Made by a program: the position numbers and the translations under genes. Positions 7,330-45,802 of a DNA stretch of 64,000 nucleotides are shown here, in pieces. The notes below the pieces were generated by a model that was given only the letters and a program-made list of their open reading frames with translations, was not told where the DNA came from and did not search any database. The stretch is from an uncultured Chloroflexia bacterium (GTDB taxonomy: Bacteria; Chloroflexota; Anaerolineae; Anaerolineales; UBA4823), in the NCBI GenBank assembly GCA_963726315.1, contig CAVSBZ010000003.1, positions 38,978 to 102,977 on the forward strand, in the 5' to 3' direction. The stretch's first letter is position 1, and the number at the start of each line of letters is the position of its first letter.

Positions 7330-7390
7330 TTTATATAGCATTCAAGCACATCAACAATTTTAGGAAATTAGATATGGTTTTGAAAGGAAT

Positions 7391-9047: not shown

Positions 9048-9075
9048 TTATCAAATTTTACAAGGAGAAACATTT

Positions 9076-9900: not shown

Positions 9901-10068
9901 GGGCAGTTTTAGGCATTTGCTAGAATGGAATGACATTTAATGGTTGATGGAGTATTTTCGGAATAACAAAAACTCTGGTCTACGTTGGTGCAATTGATGC
10001 TACCACAAGCAATTGCCAACCTGTCGTACGATCGGAAGGTTACATAAAGTCGATTAAGGAATAAGATA

Positions 10069-10686: not shown

Positions 10687-10724
10687 ATTTAAGTATATCC
10701 TAACGAGTTTACAAGGAGAAAATA

Positions 10725-21374: not shown

Positions 21375-21410
21375 TCTGATTTCCCCTTGACGTTGGACTT
21401 TTCATCTCGT

Positions 21411-21974: not shown

Positions 21975-21998
21975 ACGATTTATTATAGTATTGGATGT

Positions 21999-22032
21999 AA
22001 AAAGACGCAAAGATAATTCTTTGCGTCTTTTT
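21999..22032 (-). terminator. Rho-independent terminator ending the minus-strand operon (after the HAD gene)
   Basis: aaaaagacgcaaag / ctttgcgtcttttt with a 6-nt loop. A-run and T-run flank it, so it is potentially bidirectional. Confidence 0.7.
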
Positions 22033-22871: not shown

Positions 22872-23975
22872 TCAGCTCTTGGTTAAAAATTCGCGCACCG
22901 TATCGACGGCCATACGGTTCTCTTCCTTGGTACCGATGGTGATGCGGAACCAGCCATCGGAGCCATATTTCTCGGTCTCTGGGCGGAAAATTAAGCCTTT
23001 CGATTCAGCATAAGCTACCACGTCTTTACCCTTTTTGCCTGTTGCACCACAATCAAACAGGATGTAGTTGGCCTTTGAAAGGAATACTACCAGGTTGGGA
23101 ACCTCGCTGAGCGCTTCTGTGATGAAATCCACCTCAGCATTGTTGAACTTCACTCGATAGTTTAGGGCTTCGGTATCCTCGAGTGACGCTAATGCCGCCC
23201 ACATCGGGATGGTACCCACATTCCAGGGCAATAACGCAGCGGATATTTGACTGATCACATCTTTATCACCCATGGCGTAGCCGAAGCGTAAACCAGCCAA
23301 ACCATAAGCTTTGGAAAGCGTACGTGTGATTAGCACGTTTTTATAGGTCTTGGTCAGCTCTACTTGCGACAGCTTTAATCCAGAGTACTCTACATATGCC
23401 TCATCAATCACAAAGGGGATACCTGTCTCAGCGATACGGACGAAATCCCCTGCATCCATGAAATTACCGGTTGGGTTGTTGGGATTAGCCACTGCAATGA
23501 TCTTGGTCTTTTCGGTAATGGCATTCAAGATTCCAGTCGCGTCGTAATGGAGGTACTTATCTTTATAAATCATCGGAACAGACACCATCTTGCCACCCAG
23601 GATGGTGCCACGCAGTTTATAAATGCCGAAGCAAGGTGTGTGCTGGATGACTTCTTCCCCAGGTGCCAGGAAGCAGCGGAAGATGTTATCGAACACCTCG
23701 CTGGAGCCATTTCCGAGCATAACATTCTCAGGACCATTTAAATGATTGATCTCAGCGATCTTACTGCGCACGATCAGTCCCTGATCTGGGTAACGATTAG
23801 CCATCTTGGCATATTTGATTAGCGCTTCCAACACCTTCTCGGAAGGCGGGTTAGGGTTCTCATTAGACATCATACGGTGGAGCTCAGGTTTTCGCCAGGC
23901 TAACTCAATGTGTCCCGAGACGTACATCGGAATCCCTTTTACCCAGGGTACAAAATAATCCTCTATCTTTTTCAT
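22872..23975 (-). CDS. Class I/II PLP aminotransferase, HisC/CobD-like
   Basis: 367 aa. Contains the TLSKAYGLAGLRFGY PLP-lysine motif typical of histidinol-phosphate aminotransferase-family enzymes. Confidence 0.85.
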   Translation of the reverse strand: MKKIEDYFVPWVKGIPMYVSGHIELAWRKPELHRMMSNENPNPPSEKVLEALIKYAKMANRYPDQGLIVRSKIAEINHLNGPENVMLGNGSSEVFDNIFRCFLAPGEEVIQHTPCFGIYKLRGTILGGKMVSVPMIYKDKYLHYDATGILNAITEKTKIIAVANPNNPTGNFMDAGDFVRIAETGIPFVIDEAYVEYSGLKLSQVELTKTYKNVLITRTLSKAYGLAGLRFGYAMGDKDVISQISAALLPWNVGTIPMWAALASLEDTEALNYRVKFNNAEVDFITEALSEVPNLVVFLSKANYILFDCGATGKKGKDVVAYAESKGLIFRPETEKYGSDGWFRITIGTKEENRMAVDTVREFLTKS

Positions 23976-24064: not shown

Positions 24065-24940
24065 TCACACCTTGTCAGCGCTGCCGAGCATATCGATCCA
24101 ATGTCCTACCGCCTCACGAATGGCTTTCCTCACGGCTTCGTCGACTTTTCCAGGATCATATTCTTCACGGTGGGTGTTGATATAATCGTATTGGGCGTCG
24201 ATCATGGTGCGTTTAAGCTCGGTGGAAACGTTGAATTTCGCTCCGCCCATCTCGATCAACTTCTTGATGTAATCTTCTGGCAGACCTGTGCCACCATGGA
24301 CTACCAGGGGTGTTTTAATGGTCTTGCCGTTCAGTAATTGGTTGATCTTGCCCAGTCGCTCAAAATCTACCTTTGGGTTTTTCGTTTTGTAAACCCCATG
24401 AGCAGTACCAATGGCAGGCGCAAAGATATCCAGACCGGTCCGCTCGACAAACTCAACTGCTTGAACCGGATTTGCCAGCTGAGTTTCATCCTCAGCCACT
24501 TTTATCTGATCCTCCACCCCGCTTACCGTACCCAGCTCGCCCTCTACAGAAATCTTACCGAGCTTATGACAGTAATCGACAATTTCCTTTGTTTGACGGA
24601 TATTCTCCTCATACGCTTGCTTGGAGGCGTCAACCATGATATTCGTATAGCCAGCGTCAGCACACTTCTTACAGTGTTCGATATCCGTACAATGATCCAG
24701 GTGTAAACAAATCGGGATTGGTGCTGCAGCAGCGAGGGTGCGGTAAATTGCTACCAACACGTCGACGCCTAGAAACTTGGATGGTTTCACCGAGGTCTGA
24801 ATGATTAAGGGTGATTTCTTGGCGACTGCCGCTTCGATCACACCTTCCATTTGGTTTACGTCAGTGATATTAAAAGCACCAATGGCATATTTACCCTTGG
24901 CAGCTTCCACCATGATTTCTTTTGCGTTGACAATCGACAT
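24065..24940 (-). CDS. Class II ketose-bisphosphate aldolase (fructose/tagatose-1,6-bisphosphate aldolase family)
   Basis: 291 aa with the motifs LHLDHC, EGELG and VVHGGTG. Confidence 0.85.
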   Translation of the reverse strand: MSIVNAKEIMVEAAKGKYAIGAFNITDVNQMEGVIEAAVAKKSPLIIQTSVKPSKFLGVDVLVAIYRTLAAAAPIPICLHLDHCTDIEHCKKCADAGYTNIMVDASKQAYEENIRQTKEIVDYCHKLGKISVEGELGTVSGVEDQIKVAEDETQLANPVQAVEFVERTGLDIFAPAIGTAHGVYKTKNPKVDFERLGKINQLLNGKTIKTPLVVHGGTGLPEDYIKKLIEMGGAKFNVSTELKRTMIDAQYDYINTHREEYDPGKVDEAVRKAIREAVGHWIDMLGSADKV

Positions 24941-25085: not shown

Positions 25086-27521
25086 TTATGCCTTAATTCT
25101 CTCTCCTTTTGGATCCCACAACGGTGATTGAACGACCACAGCACCGACCTGTTCTCCAAAGAATTCTACCTCAAATTCTGTCCCTGCTTTAGCATATTCG
25201 ATCGGCAGGTATGCATAGATGATACTCTTTTCTACAGAGTAGCCGTACCCGCCCGCAGCAACCCAACTGATGACATTGCCTTCCTTGGTCCGTATGGGTT
25301 CCTTGCCCAATGCAATGGTTCGGTTATCGGAGAGGGTGAGGCAACATAGCTTCCGCTTCAGACCGGAGCTCTTTTGCTCCAACAAGGCTTCCTTACCGAT
25401 AAATTCGGCTTTTTCGAGCCTGACTGCAAACCCCAGACCAGCTTCGAGGGGAGAATAGTCAGGGCTGATCTCGCTGCTCCAGTAACGATAGCCTTTTTCG
25501 AGTCGCAGCGTATCGATAGCTTTATATCCAGCGGCGACCATCCCTTCAGGTTGTCCGGCTTCCCATAATGTATCCCACAAGCGCAAGCCATATTCCATTG
25601 GGCAATAAAACTCCCAGCCTAATTCACCAACATAGGTTACTCTACTGGCAATTACAGGAACATCGCCCACCATAATCCGTCGAGCTGTCATGTATGGGAA
25701 ACCCTCATTGGATACATCAGCCAGGGTAACTTTTTCCAGGATCTTGCGAGCTTTAGGTCCCCACAAACCCAGACAGGCAAATGAAGAGCTAACATCTTCA
25801 ATGGCAACTGAGCCATCTTCAGGCATGTTCAAGGAGAGCCACGATAGGTCATGCTGCCCAAAGGCAGTACCGGTAATGATGAAGAACCGGTCTTCTGCCA
25901 AACGGGTGACCGTAAAGTCGCACTCGATTCCACCGTGCTTGTTCAAGCATTGAGTGTAAATAATTGTTCCAACCGACTGATCTATATTATTGGCGCAAAC
26001 ATAGTTGAGGAAGGCCAGCGCTCCAGGGCCGCGCACTTCGAACTTATTGAAGGATGTTTCATCAAAGAGACCAGCGTTGAGGCGGGTCATTAAGTGTTCG
26101 TAGCCAATGGCGCGTGACCAGTTATGGTGTGACCATCCTTTTGGTTCATGTCCATGGCGTGCCTTCTCTTCGTAAGGTTTGAACCAGTTGGGACGCTCCC
26201 AGCCAGTCTTCTCACCAAAATAGCAGCCCAACGCCTGCAGACGGTTGTAAGTAGGGGAGAGACGTAAGCCTCGGCGGGAAAGACGTTCTTCACCAGGATA
26301 ATGGATATCGTAGTATTGAGTATAAGTTTCGATCGTTCGGGCGACTGTATAATCCTGGCTGTTGTAATTGGATCCGAACCGACGCACATCCAATCGCCAA
26401 ACATCCCATTCAGGATGCCCATCGATGATCCATTCTGCCATGGTCTTCCCAATCCCACCTGCTCCAGCCAACCCATGGGCACAGAAAGCGCAAGCTACCC
26501 AAAATCCTTTCACCGAAGTAGGTCCTAATAAAAATTCACCGTCTGGGGTAAAGCCTTCAGGTCCGTTGAGAAGTTGAATCACCTCAGCAGTTTCAACTGC
26601 AGGCACCCGTTTAATGGAATTTTCCATCAGCGGAGTGAAGCGGTCCCAATCAGGAGGCAAAAGCTTGTATTTAAAATCGCGTGGGATGCCAGTCAATCCG
26701 AATGGCAGTGGGTTGCGCTCGTAACCGCCGGTGACCAGACCCCCAACTTCCTCCCGCCAGTAAACCAGCAAGTCGGGGTCGCGCAAGGTGGGGAAATCAT
26801 GTCCAACACCCTCGATGGGTCTGGTGATAATGTAAAGATGTGCCATGGGGACAACGGGCAAGCTGAGCCCAACCATCTTACCAACCTCGTTTCCCCACTG
26901 ACCGGCAGCGTTCACCACGATTTCGGTTTCGATCGTACCCAGGTTGGTGACCACATCATGGACGCGTCCGTTCTTCAGGTTAATCTTCTCCACATTCGTG
27001 TCAACGAAAATCTGCGCCCCACGTAGTTTGGCTCCTTTCGCGAGGGCATTCGTCAGACCGGTCGGATCAATCACACCATCATTAGGGGTGTAGGCTGCCC
27101 CAACAATTCCGTCCATGTTCATGAGTGGGAAAAGGTCGAAGGCTTCCTTGGGCGATATGAGGTCCATGGGTACGCCGAAAGATTTTGCCATTCCCACCAG
27201 TCGCTTGATGTCTTCCATCCGTTCTGGAGAAGAAGCCAGACGAAGACCGCCTACCTCACGCCAACCTGGGTCTTGTTCGGTCTCTTGTTTTAGCTTACGG
27301 TAAAGGTCCGTGCTGTAATGCATCATCCGGGTGAGATTTGCATCGGAGCGCATCTGTCCTATCAGACCAGCAGAGTGCCAGGTTGAACCGCTGGTCAGCT
27401 CATGACGTTCGAGGATGATGATGTCTTTCCAACCCATGAGAGTTAAATGATAAGCAATACTACATCCACCGACGCCACCGCCAATGATGACCACCTGAGC
27501 ATGAGCAGGAAGATCAGCCAT
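25086..27521 (-). CDS. FAD-dependent oxidoreductase fused to a GcvT/aminomethyltransferase folate-binding domain (dimethylglycine/sarcosine dehydrogenase-like), copy A
   Basis: 811 aa. Has the VVIIGGGVGGCS dinucleotide fold and STWHSAGL, which matches the covalent-FAD histidine motif of DMGDH/SARDH. The C-terminal half is GcvT-like (RLEKGYRYW). Confidence 0.85.
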   Translation of the reverse strand: MADLPAHAQVVIIGGGVGGCSIAYHLTLMGWKDIIILERHELTSGSTWHSAGLIGQMRSDANLTRMMHYSTDLYRKLKQETEQDPGWREVGGLRLASSPERMEDIKRLVGMAKSFGVPMDLISPKEAFDLFPLMNMDGIVGAAYTPNDGVIDPTGLTNALAKGAKLRGAQIFVDTNVEKINLKNGRVHDVVTNLGTIETEIVVNAAGQWGNEVGKMVGLSLPVVPMAHLYIITRPIEGVGHDFPTLRDPDLLVYWREEVGGLVTGGYERNPLPFGLTGIPRDFKYKLLPPDWDRFTPLMENSIKRVPAVETAEVIQLLNGPEGFTPDGEFLLGPTSVKGFWVACAFCAHGLAGAGGIGKTMAEWIIDGHPEWDVWRLDVRRFGSNYNSQDYTVARTIETYTQYYDIHYPGEERLSRRGLRLSPTYNRLQALGCYFGEKTGWERPNWFKPYEEKARHGHEPKGWSHHNWSRAIGYEHLMTRLNAGLFDETSFNKFEVRGPGALAFLNYVCANNIDQSVGTIIYTQCLNKHGGIECDFTVTRLAEDRFFIITGTAFGQHDLSWLSLNMPEDGSVAIEDVSSSFACLGLWGPKARKILEKVTLADVSNEGFPYMTARRIMVGDVPVIASRVTYVGELGWEFYCPMEYGLRLWDTLWEAGQPEGMVAAGYKAIDTLRLEKGYRYWSSEISPDYSPLEAGLGFAVRLEKAEFIGKEALLEQKSSGLKRKLCCLTLSDNRTIALGKEPIRTKEGNVISWVAAGGYGYSVEKSIIYAYLPIEYAKAGTEFEVEFFGEQVGAVVVQSPLWDPKGERIKA

Positions 27522-28431
27522 TTTTACTTACCTCCTTAAGATATTCATTCCAATATGGGTTATAGATATTATCCATGGCACGACCGAAGAACTTTTCGGA
27601 ATATTCATGGAAGTCGAAATCGAGCTTCGAAATCCCAATTTGTACAAGCCCCCAGGTGGCTTCACGCAGATCGGAGATGACTTTCATGATTTTTAGATGA
27701 GCCCAGTGTAAAGGGTTTATCTGTCCATCAAAATAGCAAATCAGCATCCAGCGATCTTGTTCGTCTGAGAAATTATGGTGGTCGGAGAAATTTGCCAGAT
27801 CGAAAAAAGCATCACCCATGCCAGCATATTCCCAATCGAGAATGTAGAGTTGACCATTGGTGAGGAAATTTGCATTGAGAAGATCATTGTGGCATGCACA
27901 AGGCTGATATGGATGAACAGATAGCGCTTTCTCGGCTCCTTGCAGGCGCTCGTTCAGCCAATCAAAGTCTTTTGGGAAGCCAACATTATTACGCTGGGCA
28001 ATTTCGGTATAATCCCGGACAACGTGAAAGGGGTCGAATATTCCAGGAATCGTTGGCATGGCGTGGATTTGATGGACTTTGTCCATTACCCGACGAATGT
28101 TCTCCGGTTCTGAAATCTCATCAGGAGAGATGGGTCGTCCATCAATAAAGCGTGTCACCAGGTAACCTTCAGGTCGGATGAAGTAATACACTTCGGGGGC
28201 GATACCTAGCTTTCCCGCGGCCAGATTTGCCGCATACTCATGCTCGCGGTTGATTCCCAAGAGCTCGGTATTCGCGCCAACGATCCGAAGGACATAAGAC
28301 TGTCCGCCTGTATCGATGCGGAAATTGTTGTTGGTAATTCCTCCGCCCAGAGGCGTAGCTTTCAAGTCACTGGCACCTACCCATTGAGGCACGCGGGCTA
28401 TCGCCTCCTCCAGAGTTAATTCCATATACAA
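27514..28431 (-). CDS. Choline/ethanolamine-kinase-like phosphotransferase (APH fold), copy A
   Basis: Contains GGITNNNF, CHNDLLNANFL (Brenner motif) and ILDWEYAGMGD. Its stop overlaps the downstream FAD enzyme start by 8 nt. Confidence 0.8.
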   Translation of the reverse strand: MYMELTLEEAIARVPQWVGASDLKATPLGGGITNNNFRIDTGGQSYVLRIVGANTELLGINREHEYAANLAAGKLGIAPEVYYFIRPEGYLVTRFIDGRPISPDEISEPENIRRVMDKVHQIHAMPTIPGIFDPFHVVRDYTEIAQRNNVGFPKDFDWLNERLQGAEKALSVHPYQPCACHNDLLNANFLTNGQLYILDWEYAGMGDAFFDLANFSDHHNFSDEQDRWMLICYFDGQINPLHWAHLKIMKVISDLREATWGLVQIGISKLDFDFHEYSEKFFGRAMDNIYNPYWNEYLKEVSKNG

Positions 28432-28505
28432 AAATCCCCAGCCAATAATAAATAAGTATCACAAGTGCGAGGTTGTGATAGTTTATTGATCAACTCGGAA
28501 GGTTC

Positions 28506-29315
28506 CTATTTCTGCCAGATTGAATCAGGTTTGGCCATCTCTGCCACGATATCATTCGAAGAGATAATACCCAGCGGAAAAGCTTGCGGGTGTTCATGGT
28601 CGATTACCACCAGGCGGTGATGGTGTTTTTGGATCATCAAGTCAGCGGCTTCACGCAGATGGACGTGAATGTCAATGGTCAGTGCAGGATGCATAATATC
28701 GCTGACAGTCAGATTTTCATCCACTCCATTAGTCACATAGGGTAGAAAATCCTTACCGCTAACCACACCTACAGGCGTGCCGTTCGCATTGACCACCAGC
28801 ACTGACCGCCATCCTGCCTGGGTCATGGTGCGGGCAGCGGAGGTGAGCGGGGTTTTATCTCTGCAAACCAGGATGGAATCTGACATCACATCTGCAACTG
28901 TCTCACGTAGGGGTTTTTCTTCGCGAGCCAGGCTGGCAACAAAATCAGAAATCGAAATAATACCCGCTGGTACGGAATTTTCGGTAACCAACAGGCGTTG
29001 GATGTCCTTTTCGATCAGCACGTGGGCAGCAATTTTGAGGGAGACTTCAGCTTCAACCGATTCGATCGGAGTGGACATAAGTTCACCAGCCGTCAGCTTG
29101 CGCATCGTCTTAAGGTCATGCGTATCAGCTGCCAGCCATTCGCCCGCCAGTAGATCATAATCGGAGATGATCCCCTGGGGATGACCTTGCTGGTCGACCA
29201 CCACCAATGCATGGATGTGGTTTTGGGTGAGTAAAACAGCCACCTGGCCTAAAGTAGCATGTAAATCACAGGTGTGGATCCCTGTATGCATCAAATCGCG
29301 GACAATATTTTTCAT
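28506..29315 (-). CDS. CBS-domain protein (four CBS repeats)
   Basis: 269 aa built from repeated CBS-type segments (e.g. HALVVVDQQGHPQGIISDYDL, RLLVTENSVPAGIISISDF). Confidence 0.8.
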   Translation of the reverse strand: MKNIVRDLMHTGIHTCDLHATLGQVAVLLTQNHIHALVVVDQQGHPQGIISDYDLLAGEWLAADTHDLKTMRKLTAGELMSTPIESVEAEVSLKIAAHVLIEKDIQRLLVTENSVPAGIISISDFVASLAREEKPLRETVADVMSDSILVCRDKTPLTSAARTMTQAGWRSVLVVNANGTPVGVVSGKDFLPYVTNGVDENLTVSDIMHPALTIDIHVHLREAADLMIQKHHHRLVVIDHEHPQAFPLGIISSNDIVAEMAKPDSIWQK

Positions 29316-29327
29316 CTCAGCCTCCTG

Positions 29328-30155
29328 CTATCCCACTTCATCCACATCCCGGTACCATTTCACCCGGTCGCCCACCCGAGCACGTAAGCGCCATGCCATT
29401 GATTTCGGCTCATGTTCGATGCGTGACTTGGCAGTTTTTACCTGCTGGTTGACTTTTTCCTTTTGTTCAACGCTGAGCTGTGAATATCCCTGGGCGAGGC
29501 GATCCACCTTGTCGAGATTCATGGTTGTTGTCCTCCACAACCCCCAATCATTACTGCAGAGATTAGCGACGTACTTGATATTGATGGTTTCATGATCGAT
29601 ATCACCAAGTGGATGTTCGAGCAGTAACATGATCGTGTCGATGACATCTTTTTCGTTGATCTTCACAATTTGCATTTTTTCCAGCAGCATCTCTGCCAGT
29701 GGAATGCTTGGGTTATCCACCTCAAGCCGGTTATTCCAATAGATGATGTGACTAAAGGCAAGCTTTTCGTAGAACACGTCGATATGGATGCCAATTTCCG
29801 ACCTCTCGAAGATGGCGCGATCGCCTTCAGAAACGATGAAGACTTCACGGTTTTCACGGTAGCCAAGTCCAGCCATTAATACCTGGATTTCCTTCGTCTG
29901 CCGGTGGTAAGCGGCAAAGTCGATATCGGTATATGCGCGGCCCATAGCGGCTTGTAAATATCCAAATTGTGGGCAATGTAGCTGAAAAGCCAATGAGCCG
30001 ATGACCCGCATAATAATGCCAGCATTACTGCTGGCTGTAAGAATGCGCTTTAATTCATTTTCAAACTTGTCACGTTCCGCTCGATCTTGCTCACCCATCC
30101 CGATTGAACTGCTTAACATACCCTGCTCCTGTGCTGATACTTCAGCAATCGGCAT
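29328..30155 (-). CDS. Hypothetical protein with a possible Pol-beta-type nucleotidyltransferase fold
   Basis: 275 aa. G-S...D-x-D-like pattern (VIGSLAF...YTDIDF). The assignment is tentative. Confidence 0.5.
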   Translation of the reverse strand: MPIAEVSAQEQGMLSSSIGMGEQDRAERDKFENELKRILTASSNAGIIMRVIGSLAFQLHCPQFGYLQAAMGRAYTDIDFAAYHRQTKEIQVLMAGLGYRENREVFIVSEGDRAIFERSEIGIHIDVFYEKLAFSHIIYWNNRLEVDNPSIPLAEMLLEKMQIVKINEKDVIDTIMLLLEHPLGDIDHETINIKYVANLCSNDWGLWRTTTMNLDKVDRLAQGYSQLSVEQKEKVNQQVKTAKSRIEHEPKSMAWRLRARVGDRVKWYRDVDEVG

Positions 30156-30229
30156 AATGTTGACTGAATGTCATTAAATAGTAGACTACGGGAATATTTT
30201 CAAGCAATTATAATAAAAAAGGCAAAATC

Positions 30230-30258
30230 TTGCAAATTTCTTCATATTCTTTTATAAT
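30230..30258 (+). promoter_or_regulatory. Candidate sigma70 promoter of the DeoR gene (TTGCAA-N17-TATAAT)
   Basis: Hexamers and the 17-nt spacer were read directly. It sits in the 160-bp divergent intergenic region, which also holds three TTATAAT(A/T)AA-like repeats. Confidence 0.45.
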
Positions 30259-30315
30259 TAATCTTGATAATAAACAAATCCCTTACCTAACCGACCGATA
30301 ATTATATGTAAATTA

Positions 30316-31110
30316 ATGAGTAAATCTCTCATTCCAGCTCAACGGCGAGAGCGAATCCAGGAATATCTGGCAATCCATAAAATCGTCCGGATGGACGAAT
30401 TGTATAAGATGCTGGATACCTCTGAAGCGACTGTGAGACGGGATTTGGAATGGTTGGAACGCGAAGGAGTTTTAGAACGAACTCATGGGGGGGCAATTCT
30501 TAATCAACGGATGACTCTCGAGCCCGAATATGTCCAAAGAGCATCCTTAAACCCTGAAGAAAAACATCTAATTGGAGAACTGGCGGCCTCACTAATCGGT
30601 GATGGTGAAGTTGTATTCATCAATAGCGGCACGACGACTGCTCAGGTGATTCACCACATCCGAGGGAATGTTGGCATCATTGTGTTCACCAATAATCTGG
30701 CTGCAGTGCTGGAGGTCGGCGATACCGGGTTCAAATCCTATGTACTGGGTGGTGAGTTCCAGCCTCATTCCAACTCGGTTGCCGGTCGCTTTGGTCTTGA
30801 AAATCTGCGCCAGGTATATGCCAACAAGGCGATCCTGGGCGTCGACGGCATCAGTTTGATCCACGGCTGTACCGTGCCTTCGAATGCCGAAGCTGAAATG
30901 ATGAAATTGATGATTGAGCGCACGAAAGGGGAAATAATGATTGTGGCTGATCACACCAAATGGGGTGTGGTTTCAAATTTTCAAATCGCAAGCATCGATG
31001 AGCTCGACAAGCTGATCACGGATGCTCAAATAGATCCCACCACCCTTGATACTTTGGCTGAACATTCCGTGCAGATACATATTGCCTCAGCAAGCCAGGT
31101 AAAAGTTTAG
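30316..31110 (+). CDS. DeoR-family transcriptional regulator
   Basis: 264 aa. N-terminal wHTH (RRERIQEYL...SEATVRRDLEWLEREG) and a C-terminal DeoR sugar-phosphate-sensor domain. Confidence 0.85.
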   Translation: MSKSLIPAQRRERIQEYLAIHKIVRMDELYKMLDTSEATVRRDLEWLEREGVLERTHGGAILNQRMTLEPEYVQRASLNPEEKHLIGELAASLIGDGEVVFINSGTTTAQVIHHIRGNVGIIVFTNNLAAVLEVGDTGFKSYVLGGEFQPHSNSVAGRFGLENLRQVYANKAILGVDGISLIHGCTVPSNAEAEMMKLMIERTKGEIMIVADHTKWGVVSNFQIASIDELDKLITDAQIDPTTLDTLAEHSVQIHIASASQVKV

Positions 31111-31153
31111 CCTTGTTTGTGTAAATTACGGAATTATTTTCAAGGAGATCCGT

Positions 31154-32149
31154 ATGCCATTATTTTCCAAGAAGGAAAAAAAGAGGGCAACCCGGCTTTT
31201 TTTTGCTACTGATTTGCACGGCTCTGAGCGAACTTACCGGAAATTCATCAACGCGGGAAAATTTTATGACGTTGATATCCTGGTGATGGGAGGAGATATC
31301 ACCGGCAAACTCCTTATCCCGATCATCAAAGAAAGCAACGACCATTACCGCGCTACCTTGCAAGGCAGAGTTGAAGAGATCACCACGCAATCAGAGCTTG
31401 AAAACCTGGTTAATCGTTTGGGAACACTGGGGTTCTATCACAAGATTATGGATGAAGACGAGTTTCGTTCACTCTCAACAAACGAGAAGGCGGTTAACGA
31501 GCTGTTTCACCAGGTAGCCCATGAACGTTTAAACGCCTGGGTGGATCTGGCGGAAGAACGCCTGGCGGGAACTGGCAAGAAATGTTTTGTGACCGGTGGA
31601 AACGATGATGACCCCATGGTGTTAACAGCCATTAAGAAAGAAGGTACACAAAGTTTTTTTGCTTGTGAAAATGAAGTGGTTCAAGTTGATGCGGATCACA
31701 CCATGATATCTGTCGGTTACAGCACACCAACCCCGTGGAAGACCCCTCGGGAAATTTCAGATGAACAATTGGGCGAAATGATCGAAGAAATGATTGGGCA
31801 TGTAACCGATTCAAGTCATGCAATTTTTAACTTCCATGACCCTCCTGTTGATTCATCACTGGATACCTGCCCAATGCTGGACTGGAGCAAAGATCCACCC
31901 GAACCCATCATCCAAAGTGGACAAGTGGTCATGTATGGTGCTGGGAGTAAATCGGTCCGTAAAGCCATCGAGAAATACCAACCCATGTTAGGCTTGCATG
32001 GCCATATCCATGAATCACAATCTGTAGCTAGGATCGGACGAACCACCTGCATTAACCCTGGGAGTGAATATGGGGAAGGAATATTACGCGGATGTCTGGT
32101 GACTTTTGTGGATGGTAAGGTGGAAGGTTACCAGATGACCAGCGGGTGA
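31154..32149 (+). CDS. Calcineurin-like metallophosphoesterase, copy 1 (cytoplasmic; no signal peptide)
   Basis: Motifs ATDLHGSE, GGDITGK, TGGNDD and LHGHIHES are present. 331 aa. Confidence 0.75.
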   Translation: MPLFSKKEKKRATRLFFATDLHGSERTYRKFINAGKFYDVDILVMGGDITGKLLIPIIKESNDHYRATLQGRVEEITTQSELENLVNRLGTLGFYHKIMDEDEFRSLSTNEKAVNELFHQVAHERLNAWVDLAEERLAGTGKKCFVTGGNDDDPMVLTAIKKEGTQSFFACENEVVQVDADHTMISVGYSTPTPWKTPREISDEQLGEMIEEMIGHVTDSSHAIFNFHDPPVDSSLDTCPMLDWSKDPPEPIIQSGQVVMYGAGSKSVRKAIEKYQPMLGLHGHIHESQSVARIGRTTCINPGSEYGEGILRGCLVTFVDGKVEGYQMTSG

Positions 32150-32297
32150 CAGACCACTTTTAGAAAGGAGACTCATCAAGAATAAGGTAATCAGATCGTA
32201 ATGGTTGCGAAATTGTGTGAATGATAGGTTGAGCTTTAATTATCTGAGCAAATAAAAGCCAATCTGTTCGGATTGGCTCTACCAAAGGAGGAACACA

Positions 32298-34157
32298 ATG
32301 TCTGAAATTGCAGCAGCCAAACCAGAAGTCTTCACCAGGAAGGCCTCTGGACTCGTGCGTGTCATGTCTCCGTATTCAGCGTTTATCTATAATATATTAA
32401 CCATGGGCTTGATCTTTCCATGGACTTACCTGTGGGCACCCGGTTCACTGCCTGGCGGTCAGCTCGTTTGGGGGATCCTCCTGGCAATGATCATCGAGAT
32501 ACCGATTGCCTTCGTCTATGTTTGGCTTTCAACTGCCCTTCCACGGTCAGGTGGTGATTATGTATTTCAAAGCCGTGTTTTCGGTGGTGGCTTAGCATTT
32601 ACCGTGGTGATGTCGGGTTTTGTGATCTGGATCCTACAGTGGGTGGCGCTCTCAGGCTGGCTGGTTTCATACCTGGGGTTTGCACCGCTCTTCCTCGGTC
32701 TAGGGGCGACGATGCACGTTGCTTCCTTATCCAGCCTGGGGATCTGGTTCACGACGCCAACAGGTATCATCATAGTCAGCCTCTTAAATGCCTTGGTTGC
32801 ACTTATCCTGCTGGCAACAGGGTTTAAGAACTATGTTCGTTTCCAGCACGTCATATTTTGGGGCACAATTTTGTGCTTTGCAACTGTATTCGGTGTCCTA
32901 TTTCTCACACCGGCTTCGCAATTCGTAGATCGGTTAAACGCTTTTGCGTTATCCACGAGCGGGGTAGAAAATTTCTACCAAACCGCGGTTGCTGCTGTAA
33001 CGGCCGCTGGTATCGATCTCCACCCGCCGTTCAGCTTAATGGCTACCCTGTTAATCGCACCAATTGCATGGACCAGCTTGCAGTGGGCTACATACTCCGC
33101 TGAGCAGAACGGGGAGATCAAAGATGCCCGCAGTTTTAAGTCGCAGACGTTCATCATGGTTGGCTCGCTGATTGTCACCGGCTTACTACTGGCGCTATTG
33201 GCTTTTGGCATCCAACGTGTGGCTGGATCTGAATTTCTCTACGTTGCAGGAGCAGGTTATTGGTCGCTGATAGCTGAAGCCAATATCAGCGGATTTAACC
33301 TTTGGCCACCTATCCTGGCGGTTGCTCTCACTGCCAGTCCAATTATTGTGTTGATCATTGGACTTGGCTATTTACTCAATGGCTTCCAGATTGTGTGCAA
33401 CTGCTACATCGGTATGACGCGTGTGATGGTCGCCATGGCGCTCGACCGACTCCTGCCAGAGTGGTTTAGCAAGGTTAATGAGAAATTTCACACCCCGGTC
33501 AACGCCCACCTGGGTTACTTCCTCGCCAGTATTCCAATAATCTTTGGCTATAGTCTGGTGACCAAACCATTCACATGGACGAGTCTCACTCTGGGTGTGA
33601 CATTCGGTTGTGGTTATGTATTCATCATCACTTGCCTGGCTGGAGCTCTCCTCCCTTACCGCGCCAAGGAGGTATATGAAGCTTCCCCCGGAGCTAAGTA
33701 TAAAGTAAGCGGTATTGTTGGCTTGCTGTTCACCCTGCTCGGAGCAGGCGCTTTCGTTGGGTTAACCTGGGAGCTGGCGCCACAAGCCTTTGCGAACTAT
33801 CCGACTCTTTCCTGGTTGGTAAGGTTGGGTTCCATCGTGGCGGTGATCATCTTCCTTTACCCGATGCGTCGATACCTGGCAGAGTGGATAAACGGAAAGC
33901 CGATGCCCTGGCTCTCTGCCCTGGGCATGTTAGGTGGTGGGTTTGGTATGGCCATGGTAGTGGCGTTCCTGCTTTCACCGGCACTGGGCGTGCTCGGGAA
34001 TTGGAACTTCACCGACTTTCCTAAGAACATGCTGGCGCAGATCATCGCAATTGGAATCATCGTAATATCTGCGATATGGTATGTGTTAGTCAAGTCACGC
34101 CAGAAATCCAAGGGTATCAACGTGGATTACGCTTTCAAGGAGATTCCGCCAGAATAA
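32298..34157 (+). CDS. APC-superfamily permease, copy 1
   Basis: 619 aa with at least 12 hydrophobic segments. Contains PRSGGDYVFQSR, an APC signature-like segment. Confidence 0.8.
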   Translation: MSEIAAAKPEVFTRKASGLVRVMSPYSAFIYNILTMGLIFPWTYLWAPGSLPGGQLVWGILLAMIIEIPIAFVYVWLSTALPRSGGDYVFQSRVFGGGLAFTVVMSGFVIWILQWVALSGWLVSYLGFAPLFLGLGATMHVASLSSLGIWFTTPTGIIIVSLLNALVALILLATGFKNYVRFQHVIFWGTILCFATVFGVLFLTPASQFVDRLNAFALSTSGVENFYQTAVAAVTAAGIDLHPPFSLMATLLIAPIAWTSLQWATYSAEQNGEIKDARSFKSQTFIMVGSLIVTGLLLALLAFGIQRVAGSEFLYVAGAGYWSLIAEANISGFNLWPPILAVALTASPIIVLIIGLGYLLNGFQIVCNCYIGMTRVMVAMALDRLLPEWFSKVNEKFHTPVNAHLGYFLASIPIIFGYSLVTKPFTWTSLTLGVTFGCGYVFIITCLAGALLPYRAKEVYEASPGAKYKVSGIVGLLFTLLGAGAFVGLTWELAPQAFANYPTLSWLVRLGSIVAVIIFLYPMRRYLAEWINGKPMPWLSALGMLGGGFGMAMVVAFLLSPALGVLGNWNFTDFPKNMLAQIIAIGIIVISAIWYVLVKSRQKSKGINVDYAFKEIPPE

Positions 34158-34243
34158 AGAAGTTTCTCCCCTTCATAAAAGTGGTCAGCGCACAGGCGCT
34201 GACCACCATTTTCCTGAGCTTATAGTAGAATTTAAAATACCTC

Positions 34244-35143
34244 ATGCAGAGCATCGAAGAGATCATCGCCAGAATAGAAGATTGGAAAGGAAGCAATATT
34301 TCGATTCAGCCGATGACGGGAGGCCTGACCAACTCGAATTATAAGGTGACCGTGGATGGGGCACCTTTCTTTGTCCGCGTGCCTGGTGAGGGCACTGAAT
34401 TATTGGCAATAGACCGGAACAACGAATATTTTAATACCGATACGGCTGCAGCGACTGGGGTAGGTCCGAAAGTTCTTTATTATTTACCTGATTTACAGGT
34501 CATGGTTCTGGAATATCTCGAGGGCACAACCATGTCAAACGCTCTACTTAATGCAACAGGCATGCCTGCGAATATTGCCACGGCGATCAGGCGCCTGCAT
34601 GGCGGCTCTCGTTTTCTTACTGATTTCAATATGTTTCGATTGACCGAGTATTACCTTGAGATCTGTAAAAAGTACACTATTACCATCCCGGAAGGCTATC
34701 CAGTGAGACTTCATACGGTCAAGCAGATCGAGCAGGCAATGGCGGTCCATCCACTGCCTGCTGTGCCCTGTAATAATGATTTGCTGGCTGAGAATTATAT
34801 CTACGATGGAAATTCCATGCGCATCATTGATTATGAATATAGTGGGAACAATGATCCATGTTTTGAGCTGGGAAACACCTGCCAGGAATTACAATATAAC
34901 GAAGAAAGCATCGCTGAGGTGTGTGAAGCCTATTTTGACTACCGCAGGGTGGACATGATCTCTCGCATGAAGCTCTATATGATCATGTCTGATGTTGGCT
35001 GGGCGCTTTGGGCAGCGATCCAGGCGAAGATATCCAAGATTAATTATAATTTTTGGGGATGGGCGGTGGAACGCTGGGGAAGAGCAATTGAAAAAATGGA
35101 TTCGCCTGCATTCCCGCAATGGCTTGAAGATGTTCAAAATTGA
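34244..35143 (+). CDS. Choline/ethanolamine-kinase-like phosphotransferase, copy B
   Basis: Contains GGLTNSNY, CNNDLLAENYI and IIDYEYSGNND. 299 aa. Confidence 0.8.
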   Translation: MQSIEEIIARIEDWKGSNISIQPMTGGLTNSNYKVTVDGAPFFVRVPGEGTELLAIDRNNEYFNTDTAAATGVGPKVLYYLPDLQVMVLEYLEGTTMSNALLNATGMPANIATAIRRLHGGSRFLTDFNMFRLTEYYLEICKKYTITIPEGYPVRLHTVKQIEQAMAVHPLPAVPCNNDLLAENYIYDGNSMRIIDYEYSGNNDPCFELGNTCQELQYNEESIAEVCEAYFDYRRVDMISRMKLYMIMSDVGWALWAAIQAKISKINYNFWGWAVERWGRAIEKMDSPAFPQWLEDVQN

Positions 35144-35165
35144 ATTGGAAAGGCGGAATGGATAG

Positions 35166-37592
35166 ATGAAAGATCAAGCACGCGTCGTAATTGTGGGCGG
35201 AGGAATTGTCGGAGCAAATGTTGCTTATCATCTAGCACTGCTGGGTTGGACGGATGTGGTTCTGTGTGAAAAAGGTGAGATTGCAAGTGGCGAGTCATCG
35301 CATGCCGCCGGGCTGGTGACCCAGTTTGCCACTTCGCAAACCTTAATGCAATTCCGCAAATACAGCATTGAGTTGTACAGTGGGCTACGCCTTTTTGATT
35401 ACGTGGGTAGTTTGCGCGTGGCTTCATCGAAGGACCAGCTTACTGAGATGCACCGCAGCGTAAGCCGTGCTAAAGGGATTGGAATGGATGCGGAGGTCAT
35501 CTCGCCCGAGGAAGCGATCTCGATCATGCCCCAGCTGAGCAAAAAAGACCTATATGGGGCAATTTACCTGCCCCGAGATGGACAGCTGGACCCGTATACC
35601 ACCACAACCACGATGGTTCGCCTGGCCAAGGAGATGGGCGTAGAGGTGAAAACCTGTGTACGCGTGACCGGGTTCGAGCTCTCTTCCAAGGGTGAGATAA
35701 AGCGAGTGCTCACTAACCAGGGGGACATCCATACAGAAATCGTGGTCAATGCAGCCGGTATGTGGGCACCCCAGGTGGCTGCCATGGCTGGGGTGCACAT
35801 CCCGACCACACCGGTGGACCATCAGCACATTGCATTGAAAGCTGTGACCGGAAATGAGTTCCCGCCCTCCACCCCCTGCCTGCGTGACCCGGATAACCTG
35901 GTATATATGCGCCAGGAAGCAGGCGGACTGGTGATCGGTGGCTATGAGCCCAACCCACTGGCACGCTGGATTGATGGGGTACCCTGGGAGCACGGGGATA
36001 CCACCTTACCGGCTGATTATGACCGTTTCGAACAACTTCTGGAAGGTGCTATCCGGCGCATCCCATTCCTTGACCATGCGGGCATCATCACCCTGGTCTG
36101 TCACCCAGGTGCTTATACCCCCGACAGCCAACCCATGCTAGGGCCGGTGGCAGGAGTACGCGGTATGTGGATTGCGGCGGGAATGTCATTGAATGGCTAT
36201 GGCGGAGCAGGTGGGATTGGCAAGCTGATGGCAGAGTGGATTGTTGAAGGCGAACCTTCACTGGATGTGTATGCCTATAAAGCGACGCGGTTCGGGAATT
36301 ATTATGCCAACCCGGAATACGCCGCGGAGCGCACCCGCGAGGGGGTCAAGTACTATTACCGCTTACGCTTCCCCAATGATGAGAATGAGTGGGCCCGCCC
36401 CCACCGGGTAAGCCCGGTGCACTACCGCTTGCAGGAAATGGGTGCGGTGTTTGGTGAGAAGTTTGGCTGGGAGCGGGTCAATTACTTTGAGCCTGATAAA
36501 CCCTGGCGCAGGATGGGCGCCGACCAGCGTGCCTGGGGTTGGAAAAAGCCCCCCTATTTTGAGCGGCTTGGACAGGAACACCAGGCTACACGTGAGCGCG
36601 TGACATTGTTTGATATGACCTCATTTGGAAAGATCGAGGTGAGCGGTGCGGGAGCCCTGGCGCTATTGCAGCGGGTGGCAGATAATAATATCGATAAACC
36701 GGTGGGTTCGACAATTTACACTCAATTCTTAAATACCAACGGTGGTGTAGAAGCGGACGTGACTGTCGCCCGCCTCGGAACAGAGCGGTTCTGGGTGATC
36801 ACCGGTTCGGCTTTCATCGGGAATGAGCTGGCATGGCTGCGGATGAGTCAACAGGAGCAGGATGACTCGGTGAGCATTCGCGATATCACCCAGGAACTTG
36901 GTTGCCTGGCACTATGGGGACCCAAAGCGCGTTTCGTCTTGCAGAAGCTGACAACGGACGATATCTCGAATGAAGGTCTGCCCTACTTGCACGCCGGAAT
37001 AATCCACATTAATGGAGTTTCCATTTGGGCGCAGCGTGTCAGCTACGTAGGAGAATTAGGATGGGAATTATACATACCAAATGAACGCTGCGAGCTGGTT
37101 TGGGATGCCATTCTGAATGCGGGTGCGGAATTTGGTATCGAGGTGGGCGGTTATAAGGTGCTGGACTCCCTGCGCCTGGAAAAGGGTTACCGCTACTACA
37201 CCGCCGATGTCACCCAGCTTGAGACTCCTTATGAGGCGGGTCTTGGTTTCTGCGTGGATCTCAACAAGGAAGATTTTATCGGAAAACAAGCTTTGCTGAA
37301 ACAGAAGCAGGACGGAGTAAATCGCAAGCTGTGCACCCTGGTGCTTGATGAGGCGTCTTACACTCAAATCTATGGCGGCGAGGCAGTCTATTACCAGGGG
37401 AAGGTCATCGCCCGGGTACGCAGTGGGGGGTATGGATTTACAGTGCAGAAAAATATTCTGTATGCCTATTTGCCGATTGAGCTGGCGAAGACAGGCACAG
37501 ACCTCGAGATTGACTTGATCGAAGGTAAATTCCCAGCAAAGGTCACCCAGGCAGTATTATATGACCCGAAGGGTGAGAACTTGCGGATTTAA
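35166..37592 (+). CDS. FAD-dependent oxidoreductase + GcvT domain (DMGDH/SARDH-like), copy B
   Basis: 808 aa with VVIVGGGIVGANV, ESSHAAGL and RLEKGYRYY. It is collinear with copy A. Confidence 0.85.
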   Translation: MKDQARVVIVGGGIVGANVAYHLALLGWTDVVLCEKGEIASGESSHAAGLVTQFATSQTLMQFRKYSIELYSGLRLFDYVGSLRVASSKDQLTEMHRSVSRAKGIGMDAEVISPEEAISIMPQLSKKDLYGAIYLPRDGQLDPYTTTTTMVRLAKEMGVEVKTCVRVTGFELSSKGEIKRVLTNQGDIHTEIVVNAAGMWAPQVAAMAGVHIPTTPVDHQHIALKAVTGNEFPPSTPCLRDPDNLVYMRQEAGGLVIGGYEPNPLARWIDGVPWEHGDTTLPADYDRFEQLLEGAIRRIPFLDHAGIITLVCHPGAYTPDSQPMLGPVAGVRGMWIAAGMSLNGYGGAGGIGKLMAEWIVEGEPSLDVYAYKATRFGNYYANPEYAAERTREGVKYYYRLRFPNDENEWARPHRVSPVHYRLQEMGAVFGEKFGWERVNYFEPDKPWRRMGADQRAWGWKKPPYFERLGQEHQATRERVTLFDMTSFGKIEVSGAGALALLQRVADNNIDKPVGSTIYTQFLNTNGGVEADVTVARLGTERFWVITGSAFIGNELAWLRMSQQEQDDSVSIRDITQELGCLALWGPKARFVLQKLTTDDISNEGLPYLHAGIIHINGVSIWAQRVSYVGELGWELYIPNERCELVWDAILNAGAEFGIEVGGYKVLDSLRLEKGYRYYTADVTQLETPYEAGLGFCVDLNKEDFIGKQALLKQKQDGVNRKLCTLVLDEASYTQIYGGEAVYYQGKVIARVRSGGYGFTVQKNILYAYLPIELAKTGTDLEIDLIEGKFPAKVTQAVLYDPKGENLRI

Positions 37593-37609: not shown

Positions 37610-38890
37610 TTGTGCGTGAAGAAGAGTCATCAGGTGCGTATGGACAAGCATGAAATAACAAGCATAAAAAATTTATTAAATTCTCGTGAACCGAACCACG
37701 ACTTGCCGAGACCGTTTTATCACAATGAAATCCTGTATCAAGCAGAGATGGAAGCCATCTGGAGGCAGGGATGGCTATTTGCCGGTCACTCATGCCAGAT
37801 CCCCAACCCGGGCGATTACTTTGTTTATGCCGTGGAAGATGATTCGGTGATCGTGGTGCGCGCTGATGACGGTCAGATCAACGCCCTTTACAACGTCTGC
37901 CGGCACCGGGGAATGGTGATCTGCCAGGTACCTGAAGGAAATATCAAGCGCTTTATTTGCCCTTATCACCAATGGACCTATGACCGCAGTGGGCACTTGC
38001 TGCTCCAGCATGGCATGCAGGAAGGTCTGGATAAGACCCAGCTCGGAATGCATCCTCTCCATGCCCGTGAGGTTGAGGGGCTGATCTTCATCAGCCTTGC
38101 CCAAGAACCGCTCGATTTCGATCCGGTTAAGTCGGCGATCGCCCTGGTTGCGAAACCTCAAAGACTGAGCCGAGGCAGGGTAGCTAAGATTATGGATTTT
38201 AATATCGAATCTAATTGGAAGCTGGTGTGGGAAAATAACCGTGAATGTATGCATTGTAACGTAAACCACCCGCAATATATCAAAGCTAACTTCGACCATT
38301 ACAACGCGGATGACACAACACCTCGAGTCGCGGAGAGGTTGGAAAGGGTCACAGCTCGTCTTGAAGCGAAACTGGCCGCCCAAGGCATGTCTCTGCGCGC
38401 AGAAACAGGCATGACCGAATTTCCTGACCCAGATCACGGGCTCTGGTATGCTGCCAACCGCACTCCTAATGAGCAGGGTTATGTTAGCGAAACCATGGAT
38501 GGCAAGCAGGTGGCACCCCTGATGGGTGATTACACCGACCCTGAAGTGGGCACGTTGCGTATCCGCAGCCTGCCAAACTTTTGGATTCATGCCAGCTGTG
38601 ACCATAGTGTGGCGGTGCGTCTCACCCCGAACGGACTCACCCACACCCACATCCGCATGATCTGGTTGGTGGCTGGGGAAGCGCAGGAAGGTCGGGATTA
38701 CGATTTGACTGAACTGCTTCCGTTCTGGCAATTAACCGCGGAGCAGGATTGGAAAATTTGCACCAACCAACAAAAGGGTGTCAGCTCACACGCATACACA
38801 CCGGGACCATTATCGACTTATAAGGAGTACAACCTTGACCGGTTCCTTCGTTGGTACCTGCAGGAAATGAAAGCGTACATCGAGGCATGA
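37610..38890 (+). CDS. Rieske [2Fe-2S] non-heme-iron oxygenase alpha subunit, GbcA/Stc2-like (N-demethylase-type)
   Basis: Rieske motif CRHRG...CPYHQW. Catalytic-domain motif NWKLVWENNRECMHCNVNHPQY. Start is uncertain among TTG 37610, GTG 37616 (better RBS spacing) and ATG 37640. Confidence 0.8.
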   Translation: MCVKKSHQVRMDKHEITSIKNLLNSREPNHDLPRPFYHNEILYQAEMEAIWRQGWLFAGHSCQIPNPGDYFVYAVEDDSVIVVRADDGQINALYNVCRHRGMVICQVPEGNIKRFICPYHQWTYDRSGHLLLQHGMQEGLDKTQLGMHPLHAREVEGLIFISLAQEPLDFDPVKSAIALVAKPQRLSRGRVAKIMDFNIESNWKLVWENNRECMHCNVNHPQYIKANFDHYNADDTTPRVAERLERVTARLEAKLAAQGMSLRAETGMTEFPDPDHGLWYAANRTPNEQGYVSETMDGKQVAPLMGDYTDPEVGTLRIRSLPNFWIHASCDHSVAVRLTPNGLTHTHIRMIWLVAGEAQEGRDYDLTELLPFWQLTAEQDWKICTNQQKGVSSHAYTPGPLSTYKEYNLDRFLRWYLQEMKAYIEA

Positions 38891-39807: not shown

Positions 39808-39835
39808 CTGATCATCATGTAACCAGGAGAGACCC

Positions 39836-45795: not shown

Positions 45796-45802
45796 ATTAG
45801 TT

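Follow-up and report, generated by a model that had tools for sequence, protein, structure and literature searches.

Background

Aerobic choline catabolism, as it is known, runs via glycine betaine. Choline is an abundant product of head-group breakdown, as are the derivatives left by its partial demethylation, and in soils, sediments and guts all of these compounds stand where methane, trimethylamine and one-carbon fluxes branch. To our knowledge, the only phospho-dependent route is that of MthK and MthB, described in 2025, and it stops after one methyl group. In Eubacterium limosum, MthK phosphorylates choline, and the MttB-family enzyme MthB demethylates phosphocholine only, ending at dimethylethanolamine phosphate, the authors' rationale being that the phosphate provides an acidic handle (Jiang et al., J Biol Chem 2025, PMC12155760). 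Here we analysed a stretch of 64,000 nucleotides from an uncultured Chloroflexia bacterium of the order Anaerolineales (assembly GCA_963726315.1, contig CAVSBZ010000003.1, positions 38,978 to 102,977; hereafter the window, with coordinates counted from its first nucleotide), in which the gene for a kinase of the choline/ethanolamine-kinase family is twice joined to the gene for a flavoenzyme like dimethylglycine dehydrogenase (DMGDH). Our reading of these pairs, drawn from sequence and gene context and given a probability of roughly 0.55, is a phosphorylation-dependent catabolism of choline-type N-methyl amino alcohols, which would be phosphorylated and then oxidatively N-demethylated to phosphoethanolamine.

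By analogy, the MthK/MthB system may serve as a precedent for phosphorylation ahead of demethylation. In MthK/MthB/MthC/MthA, too, the gene of a LicA-like kinase, MthK, lies beside that of an N-demethylase, and an MttB homologue is encoded near the second kinase of the window. MthB, however, is corrinoid-dependent and removes one methyl group, whereas the kinase partners here are oxidative demethylases that depend on FAD (flavin adenine dinucleotide) and on THF (tetrahydrofolate), predicted for the second and third methyls; in addition, the window MttB homologue lacks the Arg312 discussed below, and the cluster showed no corrinoid protein. With DMGDH, sarcosine dehydrogenase (SARDH) and dimethylglycine oxidase (DMGO), represented by structures 4PAB, 5L46 and 1PJ5, the flavoenzymes share four domains, the covalent-FAD histidine, a His/Tyr dyad and a folate-binding GcvT part. 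Unlike those enzymes, the window type stands beside a kinase in three phyla, carries signature residues that differ from rat DMGDH and DMGO, and has as its predicted substrate a phospho-ester, not a carboxylate.

The LicA/LicB/LicC systems of Streptococcus and Haemophilus likewise combine a permease with a choline kinase that has the Brenner and ChoK motifs and a W-x-x-W box, and a minimal module in Villigracilis, described below, has an NTase-fold protein after the kinase. In contrast to the genes studied here, Lic serves anabolic phosphocholine decoration without a demethylase, and the permeases here are of APC or ChoXWV type; the LicC nucleotidyltransferase fold also differs from the NTase fold. 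GbcAB and MtgB, the best families for a Rieske protein and the MttB homologue of the window, remove a methyl from quaternary amines that carry an anionic group, but the window proteins score lower than the curated cut-offs, the residues by which MtgB binds its substrate are not conserved, and GbcB and the corrinoid partners were not seen in the cluster. A kinase-coupled DMGDH-like enzyme was not described in the literature that we searched. The enzymes themselves belong to known families (DMGDH-like enzymes, choline/ethanolamine kinases); it is their coupling and the implied phospho-ester substrates that appear to be new to that literature.

Results and Discussion

Two kinase-flavoenzyme pairs

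The original prediction had described two diverged, inverted cassettes, and the coordinates and domains of all four genes proved to be exact when compared with the list of open reading frames (ORFs) and with Pfam. On the minus strand, kinase A (KinA; 27514..28431), of the choline/ethanolamine-kinase family, with the Brenner motif HNDLL at residue 181 and LDWEYAG at 198, is followed by flavoenzyme A (FlavoA; 25086..27521, 811 residues). On the plus strand, kinase B (KinB; 34244..35143, 299 residues), of the choline-kinase family, with an intact W253-x-x-W256 box and the ChoK motif IDYEYSGNNDPCFELGN, is followed by flavoenzyme B (FlavoB; 35166..37592, 808 residues). Both flavoenzymes are composed of DAO, FAO_M, GCV_T and GCV_T_C, all four Pfam domains scoring over cut-off. 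The two junctions were verified on the DNA, namely an 8-nt overlap between kinase A and FlavoA (sequence ATGGCTGA; the Shine-Dalgarno sequence AAGGAGG falls within the kinase A gene, at its 3' end) and a 22-nt gap between kinase B and FlavoB. The true start of kinase A is more likely to be the ATG at 28425, two codons downstream, because homologues begin there; the protein would then have 303 residues.

FlavoA and FlavoB are 44% identical over ~800 residues, and the kinases 27% over ~297 residues, so that the first estimate by eye, one third to two fifths of residues for both, was too low for the flavoenzymes and too high for the kinases. A recent inverted DNA repeat is ruled out, because DNA similarity between the cassettes is confined to stretches of 45-87 nt with 71-76% identity; the paralogues are old, as had been proposed. 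The further idea that one two-gene cassette was duplicated as a whole did not stand: the trees argue against it, the kinases falling in two ancient clades that span other phyla. Since kinase and flavoenzyme subtypes reassort between phyla, the two cassettes are not a duplicated unit. DNA nearly identical to the window was found in wetland, sediment and soil metagenomes.

Conservation of the pair in three phyla

If kinase and flavoenzyme are functionally coupled, as was suggested from the window, their adjacency is expected to recur, and it does. Every locus in this comparison was retrieved via the kinase, some of the Chloroflexota loci represent the same region twice, and only informative loci were counted; among these, the kinase gene has a DMGDH-like gene no more than 1.2 kb away in 71 of 83 loci from Chloroflexota, 79 of 79 of the Actinomycetota type and all 76 from Alphaproteobacteria, and the two genes nearly always share a strand. 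Of the 215 relatives found in a scan with an actinobacterial kinase, 80 loci were examined. Wherever an Actinomycetota-type locus offered enough sequence, the kinase was followed, in the same orientation, by a FlavoA-like gene (~40% identity). Apart from this pair, conservation extended there only to an APC permease and a divergent regulator of the GntR/UTRA type; regulator, permease, kinase and flavoenzyme are kept, and nothing more of the window.

The structural-genomics entry 3DXQ from Mesorhizobium is the KinB-type second kinase (K2) of a rhizobial operon and the best solved relative of KinB (E 3.6e-42; 34-36% identity). A scan with its sequence found at least 582 relatives in Alphaproteobacteria; loci found in this way show the order DeoR - K1 - flavoenzyme - K2. 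Typically, a DeoR gene stands divergent from genes for a KinA-like kinase, a FlavoA-like flavoenzyme and a KinB-like kinase, and a second flavoenzyme is present in several genera. Among the annotated copies on plasmids, in Rhizobium rosettiformans p1 the DeoR gene borders an operon for a binding protein, an ATPase, a permease, kinase 1, flavoenzyme 1, flavoenzyme 2 and kinase 2, with overlapping stop and start codons, and Shinella pShin-01 (locus L257, 1-12828) has the same unit of importer, kinase and flavoenzyme, directly after which a formaldehyde-sensitive repressor is encoded. Ruegeria and Salipiger have the flavoenzyme gene ahead of the kinase gene next to DeoR. The kinase-flavoenzyme junctions are overlapping or tightly spaced in the window, Shinella and Rhizobium rosettiformans, and a DeoR regulator flanks the proteobacterial operons as it does in the window. 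The actinobacterial and proteobacterial units have no genes for Rieske and MttB proteins, nor do they have PfkB, aldolase, HisC-like and HAD genes.

The importer genes give some indication of what is taken up. The permeases of the rhizobial operon and of the Olavius Delta-1 symbiont pass the ChoW equivalog cut-off (411.5 and 409.4 vs 363 bits), and the rhizobial ATPase passes that of the betaine/proline/choline subfamily; the binding protein of this operon is divergent, its ProX/ChoX matches lying far under cut-off.

Some further neighbours were observed in these loci. Glutamine-synthetase-family genes lie near the pair in Shinella and Pseudonocardia (locus L015, 11653-13482), and a gene for an S-adenosylmethionine-dependent methyltransferase divergently adjoins the K2 kinase in Shinella and Mesorhizobium. 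In Salipiger abyssi pPABY1 (locus L261, 1-9840), a trimethylamine N-oxide (TMAO) demethylase-like protein (1074 bits vs 1100) and an ABC transporter are encoded immediately upstream of the DeoR-flavoenzyme-kinase genes, and the pair therefore sits in a methylated-amine island. The Olavius Delta-1 locus (L092, 2-12112) holds genes for the ChoW-type permease, one KinA-type and two KinB-type kinases, a transketolase and an MttB homologue that is 56% identical to that of the window; there is no flavoenzyme in that locus, which seems to vary the theme with MttB as its basis.

Flavoenzymes and their signature residues

Both flavoenzymes match 4PAB, 5L46 and 1PJ5 over their full length (E 1e-132 to 1e-172). 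The H-[AS]-A-G-L motif, which had been taken for that of the covalent-FAD histidine, is in both of them and aligns with it: His49 of FlavoA and His46 of FlavoB correspond to His48 of DMGO and to the histidine of rat and human DMGDH, and covalent attachment is predicted from this alignment. In human DMGDH this residue is His91 (PMC5082570). The catalytic dyad is kept as well, as His228/Tyr254 in FlavoA and His219/Tyr247 in FlavoB (His225/Tyr259 in DMGO). The kinase-linked flavoenzymes show 36-52% identity to each other and 33-37% to rat DMGDH and DMGO.

A signature was derived from positions that are fixed in the Chloroflexota and Actinomycetota enzymes and differ in both rat DMGDH and DMGO. 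It comprises Pro249, Gly260, Gly266, Arg305, Arg395, Asn445 and Tyr666 in FlavoA, and Gly253, Arg298, Arg389, Asn439 and Tyr663 in FlavoB. Gly260 of FlavoA, six residues past the catalytic tyrosine, is Asp in both references, and Pro249 and Gly266 flank the hairpin that contains it; Arg305 is Met or Leu in the references, and Arg395 is Lys or Thr. The signature was recovered in 91-93 of the 93 proteobacterial kinase-linked enzymes, an independent set that was not used for its derivation. Two extra arginines and one lost aspartate are what a dianionic phosphate would need, and we regard them as a lead to the substrate.

Two types of kinase

Both window kinases match PF01633 Choline_kinase (79 and 85 bits vs a 29-bit cut-off). 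The Brenner motif, H/N-x-D-x-x-x-x-N, reads HNDLLNAN in KinA and NNDLLAEN in KinB, and the ChoK motif reads LDWEYAG and IDYEYSG. The best solved relatives are the rhizobial 3DXQ, LicA and human choline kinases. The top NCBIfam match is the guanitoxin N-oxide kinase GntI, under cut-off (273 and 175 vs 357 bits), and no guanitoxin gene context was found around the kinases.

The two kinases differ in the aromatic box that receives the amine. W253-A-L-W256 of KinB aligns with IWSLW of LicA and FWGLW of the human enzymes, the aromatic pair thus being kept, and W-x-x-W is present in 163 KinB-type sequences (78 from Anaerolineales, 82 from Actinomycetota and 3 others) as well as in rhizobial K2 and 3DXQ. 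KinA has no W-x-x-W; residues 256-260 are R-E-A-T-W instead, and [R/H]-E-x-x-W, with Glu for the first Trp, is shared by 33 sequences of the KinA type and by rhizobial K1. In a bootstrapped neighbour-joining tree the KinA-type clade received 80% and the KinB-type subclades 97-100%, each spanning several phyla. Judged by these sequences, KinA and KinB are two ancient kinase types, and they may be suited to different methylation states. Both types are encoded side by side, next to MttB, in a deltaproteobacterial symbiont. Taken together, the kinase motifs and the aromatic box, the kinase trees, the ChoW-type permease and the betaine/proline/choline ATPase point to choline-series amino alcohols as substrates.

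The proposed pathway and points that weigh against it

In the pathway that we propose, the permeases would import choline, N,N-dimethylethanolamine and/or N-methylethanolamine. KinB, with its intact quaternary-amine box, would phosphorylate the more methylated alcohol, and KinA, with Glu in place of the first Trp of the box, the less methylated one. The Rieske oxygenase, the MttB homologue or both would take the first methyl from phosphocholine; FlavoB and then FlavoA would oxidise the N-methyls of phospho-dimethyl- and phospho-monomethyl-ethanolamine at the covalent FAD, and the one-carbon unit would pass to THF in the GcvT domain, leaving phosphoethanolamine as the product. Dimethylglycine and sarcosine are anchored in DMGDH and SARDH by their carboxylate, whose place the phosphate ester would take, and the DeoR regulator probably senses a phosphorylated intermediate. 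The effectors of DeoR-family regulators are typically phosphorylated metabolites. These effectors, the formaldehyde-sensitive repressor in Shinella and the finding that no choline dehydrogenase or betaine-aldehyde dehydrogenase is encoded among the genes at 18.8-44.3 kb of the window, which were scanned with Pfam and NCBIfam, all fit the pathway.

Quaternary nitrogens cannot be oxidised by flavin amine dehydrogenases, and phosphorylated choline therefore needs a different first demethylase. For removal of the first methyl, the window offers the Rieske oxygenase and the MttB homologue as candidates. The Rieske protein scores 362.5 bits against the 670 of the GbcA equivalog cut-off, GbcA still being its best family. 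The best solved relative of the MttB homologue is the glycine betaine methyltransferase MtgB; in the alignment, Arg312 of MtgB is replaced by Gly, His348 by Met and Phe356 by Lys. In MtgB, Arg312 forms a salt bridge with the acidic group of the substrate, and it is conserved in MtgB, MtcB, MtpB, MtyB and MthB (PMC13080624). The window protein was also considered as an orthologue of MthB, and this was excluded since Arg312 is absent. The actinobacterial and proteobacterial units have neither Rieske nor MttB genes and therefore would start at dimethyl- or monomethyl-ethanolamine.

Several observations weigh against the phosphorylation-dependent pathway. The first demethylation is its weakest link, because the MttB homologue has lost the Arg312 that all characterised MttB members with acidic substrates keep, because the genes at 18.8-44.3 kb, when scanned, showed neither a corrinoid protein nor a domain that binds B12 or pterin, and because no reductase partner (GbcB) of the Rieske protein is in the cluster. 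Twelve Chloroflexota loci hold the kinase without any flavoenzyme, and retrieval via the kinase is a design in which signature-bearing flavoenzymes without a kinase neighbour are not counted. FlavoA is 37% identical to rat DMGDH, a value similar to that for some of its kinase-linked relatives. The phylogenies were of divided outcome: neighbour-joining trees resolved the kinase types, but they leave the kinase-linked flavoenzymes not apart from rat DMGDH (bootstrap 7-30%). The signature is a contrast with two reference enzymes only, rat DMGDH and DMGO, and is defined along the sequence. Furthermore, the subtypes reassort, Actinomycetota pairing a KinB-type kinase with an F1-type flavoenzyme, and strict feeding of one flavoenzyme by one kinase is therefore weakened. 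The original prediction that the two copies could serve successive methylation states agrees with the W-x-x-W of KinB versus the Glu of KinA. Finally, we infer the kinase-first order of reactions.

Alternative explanations

This order might be the reverse, with the flavoenzyme converting free dimethyl- or monomethyl-ethanolamine to ethanolamine and with ethanolamine kinases then feeding a phospho-lyase or lipid synthesis. Gene order does not set reaction order, and in Ruegeria and Salipiger the flavoenzyme gene in fact precedes the kinase gene. An amino-alcohol kinase followed by a pyridoxal phosphate-dependent phospho-lyase is a known catabolic pattern, and glutamine-synthetase-like enzymes, which handle free ethanolamine in some actinomycetes, are those encoded near the pair in Pseudonocardia and Shinella. 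However, one ethanolamine kinase would suffice for such a route, yet two ancient types with different amine pockets are co-conserved, and the KinB type retains the quaternary-amine box. The DMGDH family binds anionic substrates, and the kinase-linked set has gained two invariant arginines and lost an aspartate. The conserved gene sets also contain no phospho-lyase-type class III aminotransferase. We therefore consider demethylation ahead of phosphorylation unlikely.

The logic of phosphorylation followed by demethylation could also be applied to an N-methylated amino alcohol of a different kind (N-methylated serinol, aminopropanol or an amino-polyol, for example), with the demethylated phospho-amine being transaminated by the HisC-like enzyme to a ketose phosphate and passed on to PfkB and aldolase. 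HisC-type enzymes make 2-oxo-alkyl phosphates, and DeoR, PfkB, class II aldolase, HisC-like and sugar-phosphatase-like HAD proteins together resemble a toolkit for sugar phosphates. A substrate of this kind is nevertheless improbable, given that neither the proteobacterial nor the actinobacterial units contain the sugar-type genes, that the proteobacterial importer is of ChoXWV type and that the pocket of KinB matches the choline-kinase box.

According to a third explanation, the Rieske and MttB proteins make dimethylglycine in an ordinary betaine route, FlavoB and FlavoA are plain DMGDH and SARDH, and the kinases belong to unrelated choline salvage. The family assignments agree with this, GbcA being the best family of the Rieske protein and MtgB the best solved relative of the MttB homologue, and so do the full-length matches of the flavoenzymes to DMGDH and DMGO (E 1e-132 to 1e-172), with all catalytic residues kept. 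Those assignments are distant, however (362 vs 670 bits for GbcA), and all three MtgB betaine-binding residues that were checked are missing in the MttB homologue, while the signature residues set the kinase-linked enzymes apart from both bona fide dimethylglycine enzymes. Moreover, the kinase-flavoenzyme pair persists, with overlapping junctions, in actinobacterial and proteobacterial units that have neither Rieske nor MttB genes, and a betaine route leaves the near-invariant adjacency in three phyla unexplained; we find it quite unlikely. Least credible of all is an antibiotic-kinase (APH) or thiamine-kinase identity of the two proteins, with a place beside the flavoenzyme genes by chance, for although PF01636 APH also matches and JGI labels homologues 'thiamine kinase-like', the Choline_kinase scores equal or exceed those of APH, the ThiK equivalogs are missed widely (79 and 89 bits vs 299.45; 38 bits vs 206), the ChoK motif and the box are present, 3DXQ, LicA and human choline kinases rank best among solved structures, and the adjacency is conserved in three phyla, which upholds the first assignment of both proteins as choline-kinase-like.

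If the phosphorylation-dependent pathway is true, kinase-coupled FAD/THF demethylases would explain the consumption of dimethyl- and monomethyl-ethanolamine, and a textbook enzyme family would gain phospho-esters as a new class of substrates. It would also provide functions for hundreds of proteins annotated as 'FAD-dependent oxidoreductase' or 'phosphotransferase' and for the orphan structure 3DXQ. Since the operon is also found in cultured Mesorhizobium, Rhizobium, Shinella and Ruegeria, this hypothesis is testable by routine genetics and enzymology.

The surrounding gene cluster in Anaerolineales

Both cassettes are embedded in a cluster of ~24 kb that is kept across dozens of Anaerolineales species (tblastn synteny, 96 loci). 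The minus arm begins with a PHO4-family phosphate transporter (plus strand) and a NUDIX hydrolase (minus strand), together at 20415..22010, which are syntenic with the cluster in closer relatives. It continues, all on the minus strand, with a HAD-IA (beta-phosphoglucomutase-like) phosphatase (22053..22817), a HisC-like class I/II aminotransferase (22872..23975) that is a candidate phospho-amine transaminase, a class II ketose-bisphosphate aldolase (24065..24940) that is conserved beside FlavoA/KinA in Anaerolineales and passes only the cbbA subfamily cut-off, FlavoA, KinA, a four-CBS-domain protein adjoining KinA (28506..29315) and an NTase-superfamily protein (PF14907-like; 29328..30155), which probably starts at Met13 (263 residues). 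The divergent intergenic region (30156..30315) has the two best sigma-70-like promoter matches (10/12), one per strand. The plus arm, on the plus strand throughout, begins with the DeoR/GlpR-family regulator (30316..31110), divergent from the NTase-CBS-KinA-FlavoA arm, and continues with metallophosphoesterase 1 (MPE1; 31154..32149), a cytoplasmic protein without signal peptide and with an aq_1956/TT1561-like fold, APC-superfamily permease 1 (32298..34157), KinB and FlavoB. These are followed by the GbcA-like Rieske oxygenase alpha subunit (37610..38890), a candidate O2-dependent quaternary-amine demethylase that is missing from many related clusters, a divergent PfkB-family kinase (38851..39807) that always adjoins the MttB homologue in related genomes, the non-pyrrolysine MttB-superfamily methyltransferase homologue (39836..41287), metallophosphoesterase 2 (MPE2; 41339..42277), 40% identical to MPE1, and APC-superfamily permease 2 (42434..44320). 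Between permease 1 and KinB, an 11-bp, GC-rich hairpin (34181..34206, plus strand) is a possible terminator or attenuator; an Rfam scan found no riboswitch, and no RNA-seq run was found to contain the region.

The cluster varies among the 96 loci: KinA may be displaced or absent, FlavoB may stand ahead of KinB, an extra DeoR gene may lie between KinB and FlavoB, and the Rieske gene is frequently missing. Candidatus Villigracilis and relatives have a minimal MPE - permease - KinB - NTase module without a flavoenzyme (locus L050, 7169-11659), which recalls choline activation of the LicB/LicA/LicC type. The adjacent MPE2 and permease 2 genes represent a second diverged duplication, that of MPE1 and permease 1, in direct orientation and at a constant offset of ~10.12 kb; MPE2, like MPE1, is cytoplasmic. 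The PfkB kinase and MttB homologue genes (38851-41287) are adjacent in all related Anaerolineales clusters and could form a second pair of kinase and demethylase, on a different kinase fold. In the AlphaFold model of MPE1 (predicted local distance difference test, pLDDT, 82), the structural neighbours are uncharacterised phosphoesterases only (aq_1956, TT1561); the model of the NTase-like protein was poor (pLDDT 52) and was left out of the fold search.

The aldolase, the HisC-like transaminase and the HAD-IA phosphatase all score just under equivalog cut-offs, the transaminase being a narrow miss (261.2 bits vs 276.55, TIGR01141). Their genes stand next to FlavoA within Anaerolineales only and may be housekeeping genes. 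As an extension of the pathway in Anaerolineales, the C2 skeleton of phosphoethanolamine might be assimilated with its phosphate retained, which, with the kinase-coupled flavoenzymes, would make a complete and hitherto unknown route from choline to central sugar phosphates: the HisC-like transaminase would give phosphoglycolaldehyde, the divergent class II aldolase would condense it with dihydroxyacetone phosphate to xylulose-1,5-bisphosphate, and xylulose-5-phosphate, freed by the CbbY-like HAD phosphatase, would enter the pentose-phosphate pathway. This extension is doubtful, the chemistry from phosphoglycolaldehyde through xylulose-1,5-bisphosphate to xylulose-5-phosphate being speculative.

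Outside the cluster, three other features of the window were observed. At 44669-47487, ABC binding-protein and permease genes upstream of an intact ATPase gene are broken across overlapping frames (171, 170, 170, 265 and 160 residues), which suggests pseudogenisation or assembly frameshifts. At 54220-57537, a single ORF of 1105 residues joins an N-terminal S-adenosylmethionine-dependent methyltransferase domain to a leucyl-tRNA synthetase and may be a true fusion or an in-frame read-through of two genes. Upstream of the cluster, at 5812-11720, genes for the dihydroxyacetone kinase subunits Dak2/Dak1, for two TIM-barrel proteins of xylose-isomerase-like type and for a sugar kinase of the FGGY family form a triose/polyol cluster.

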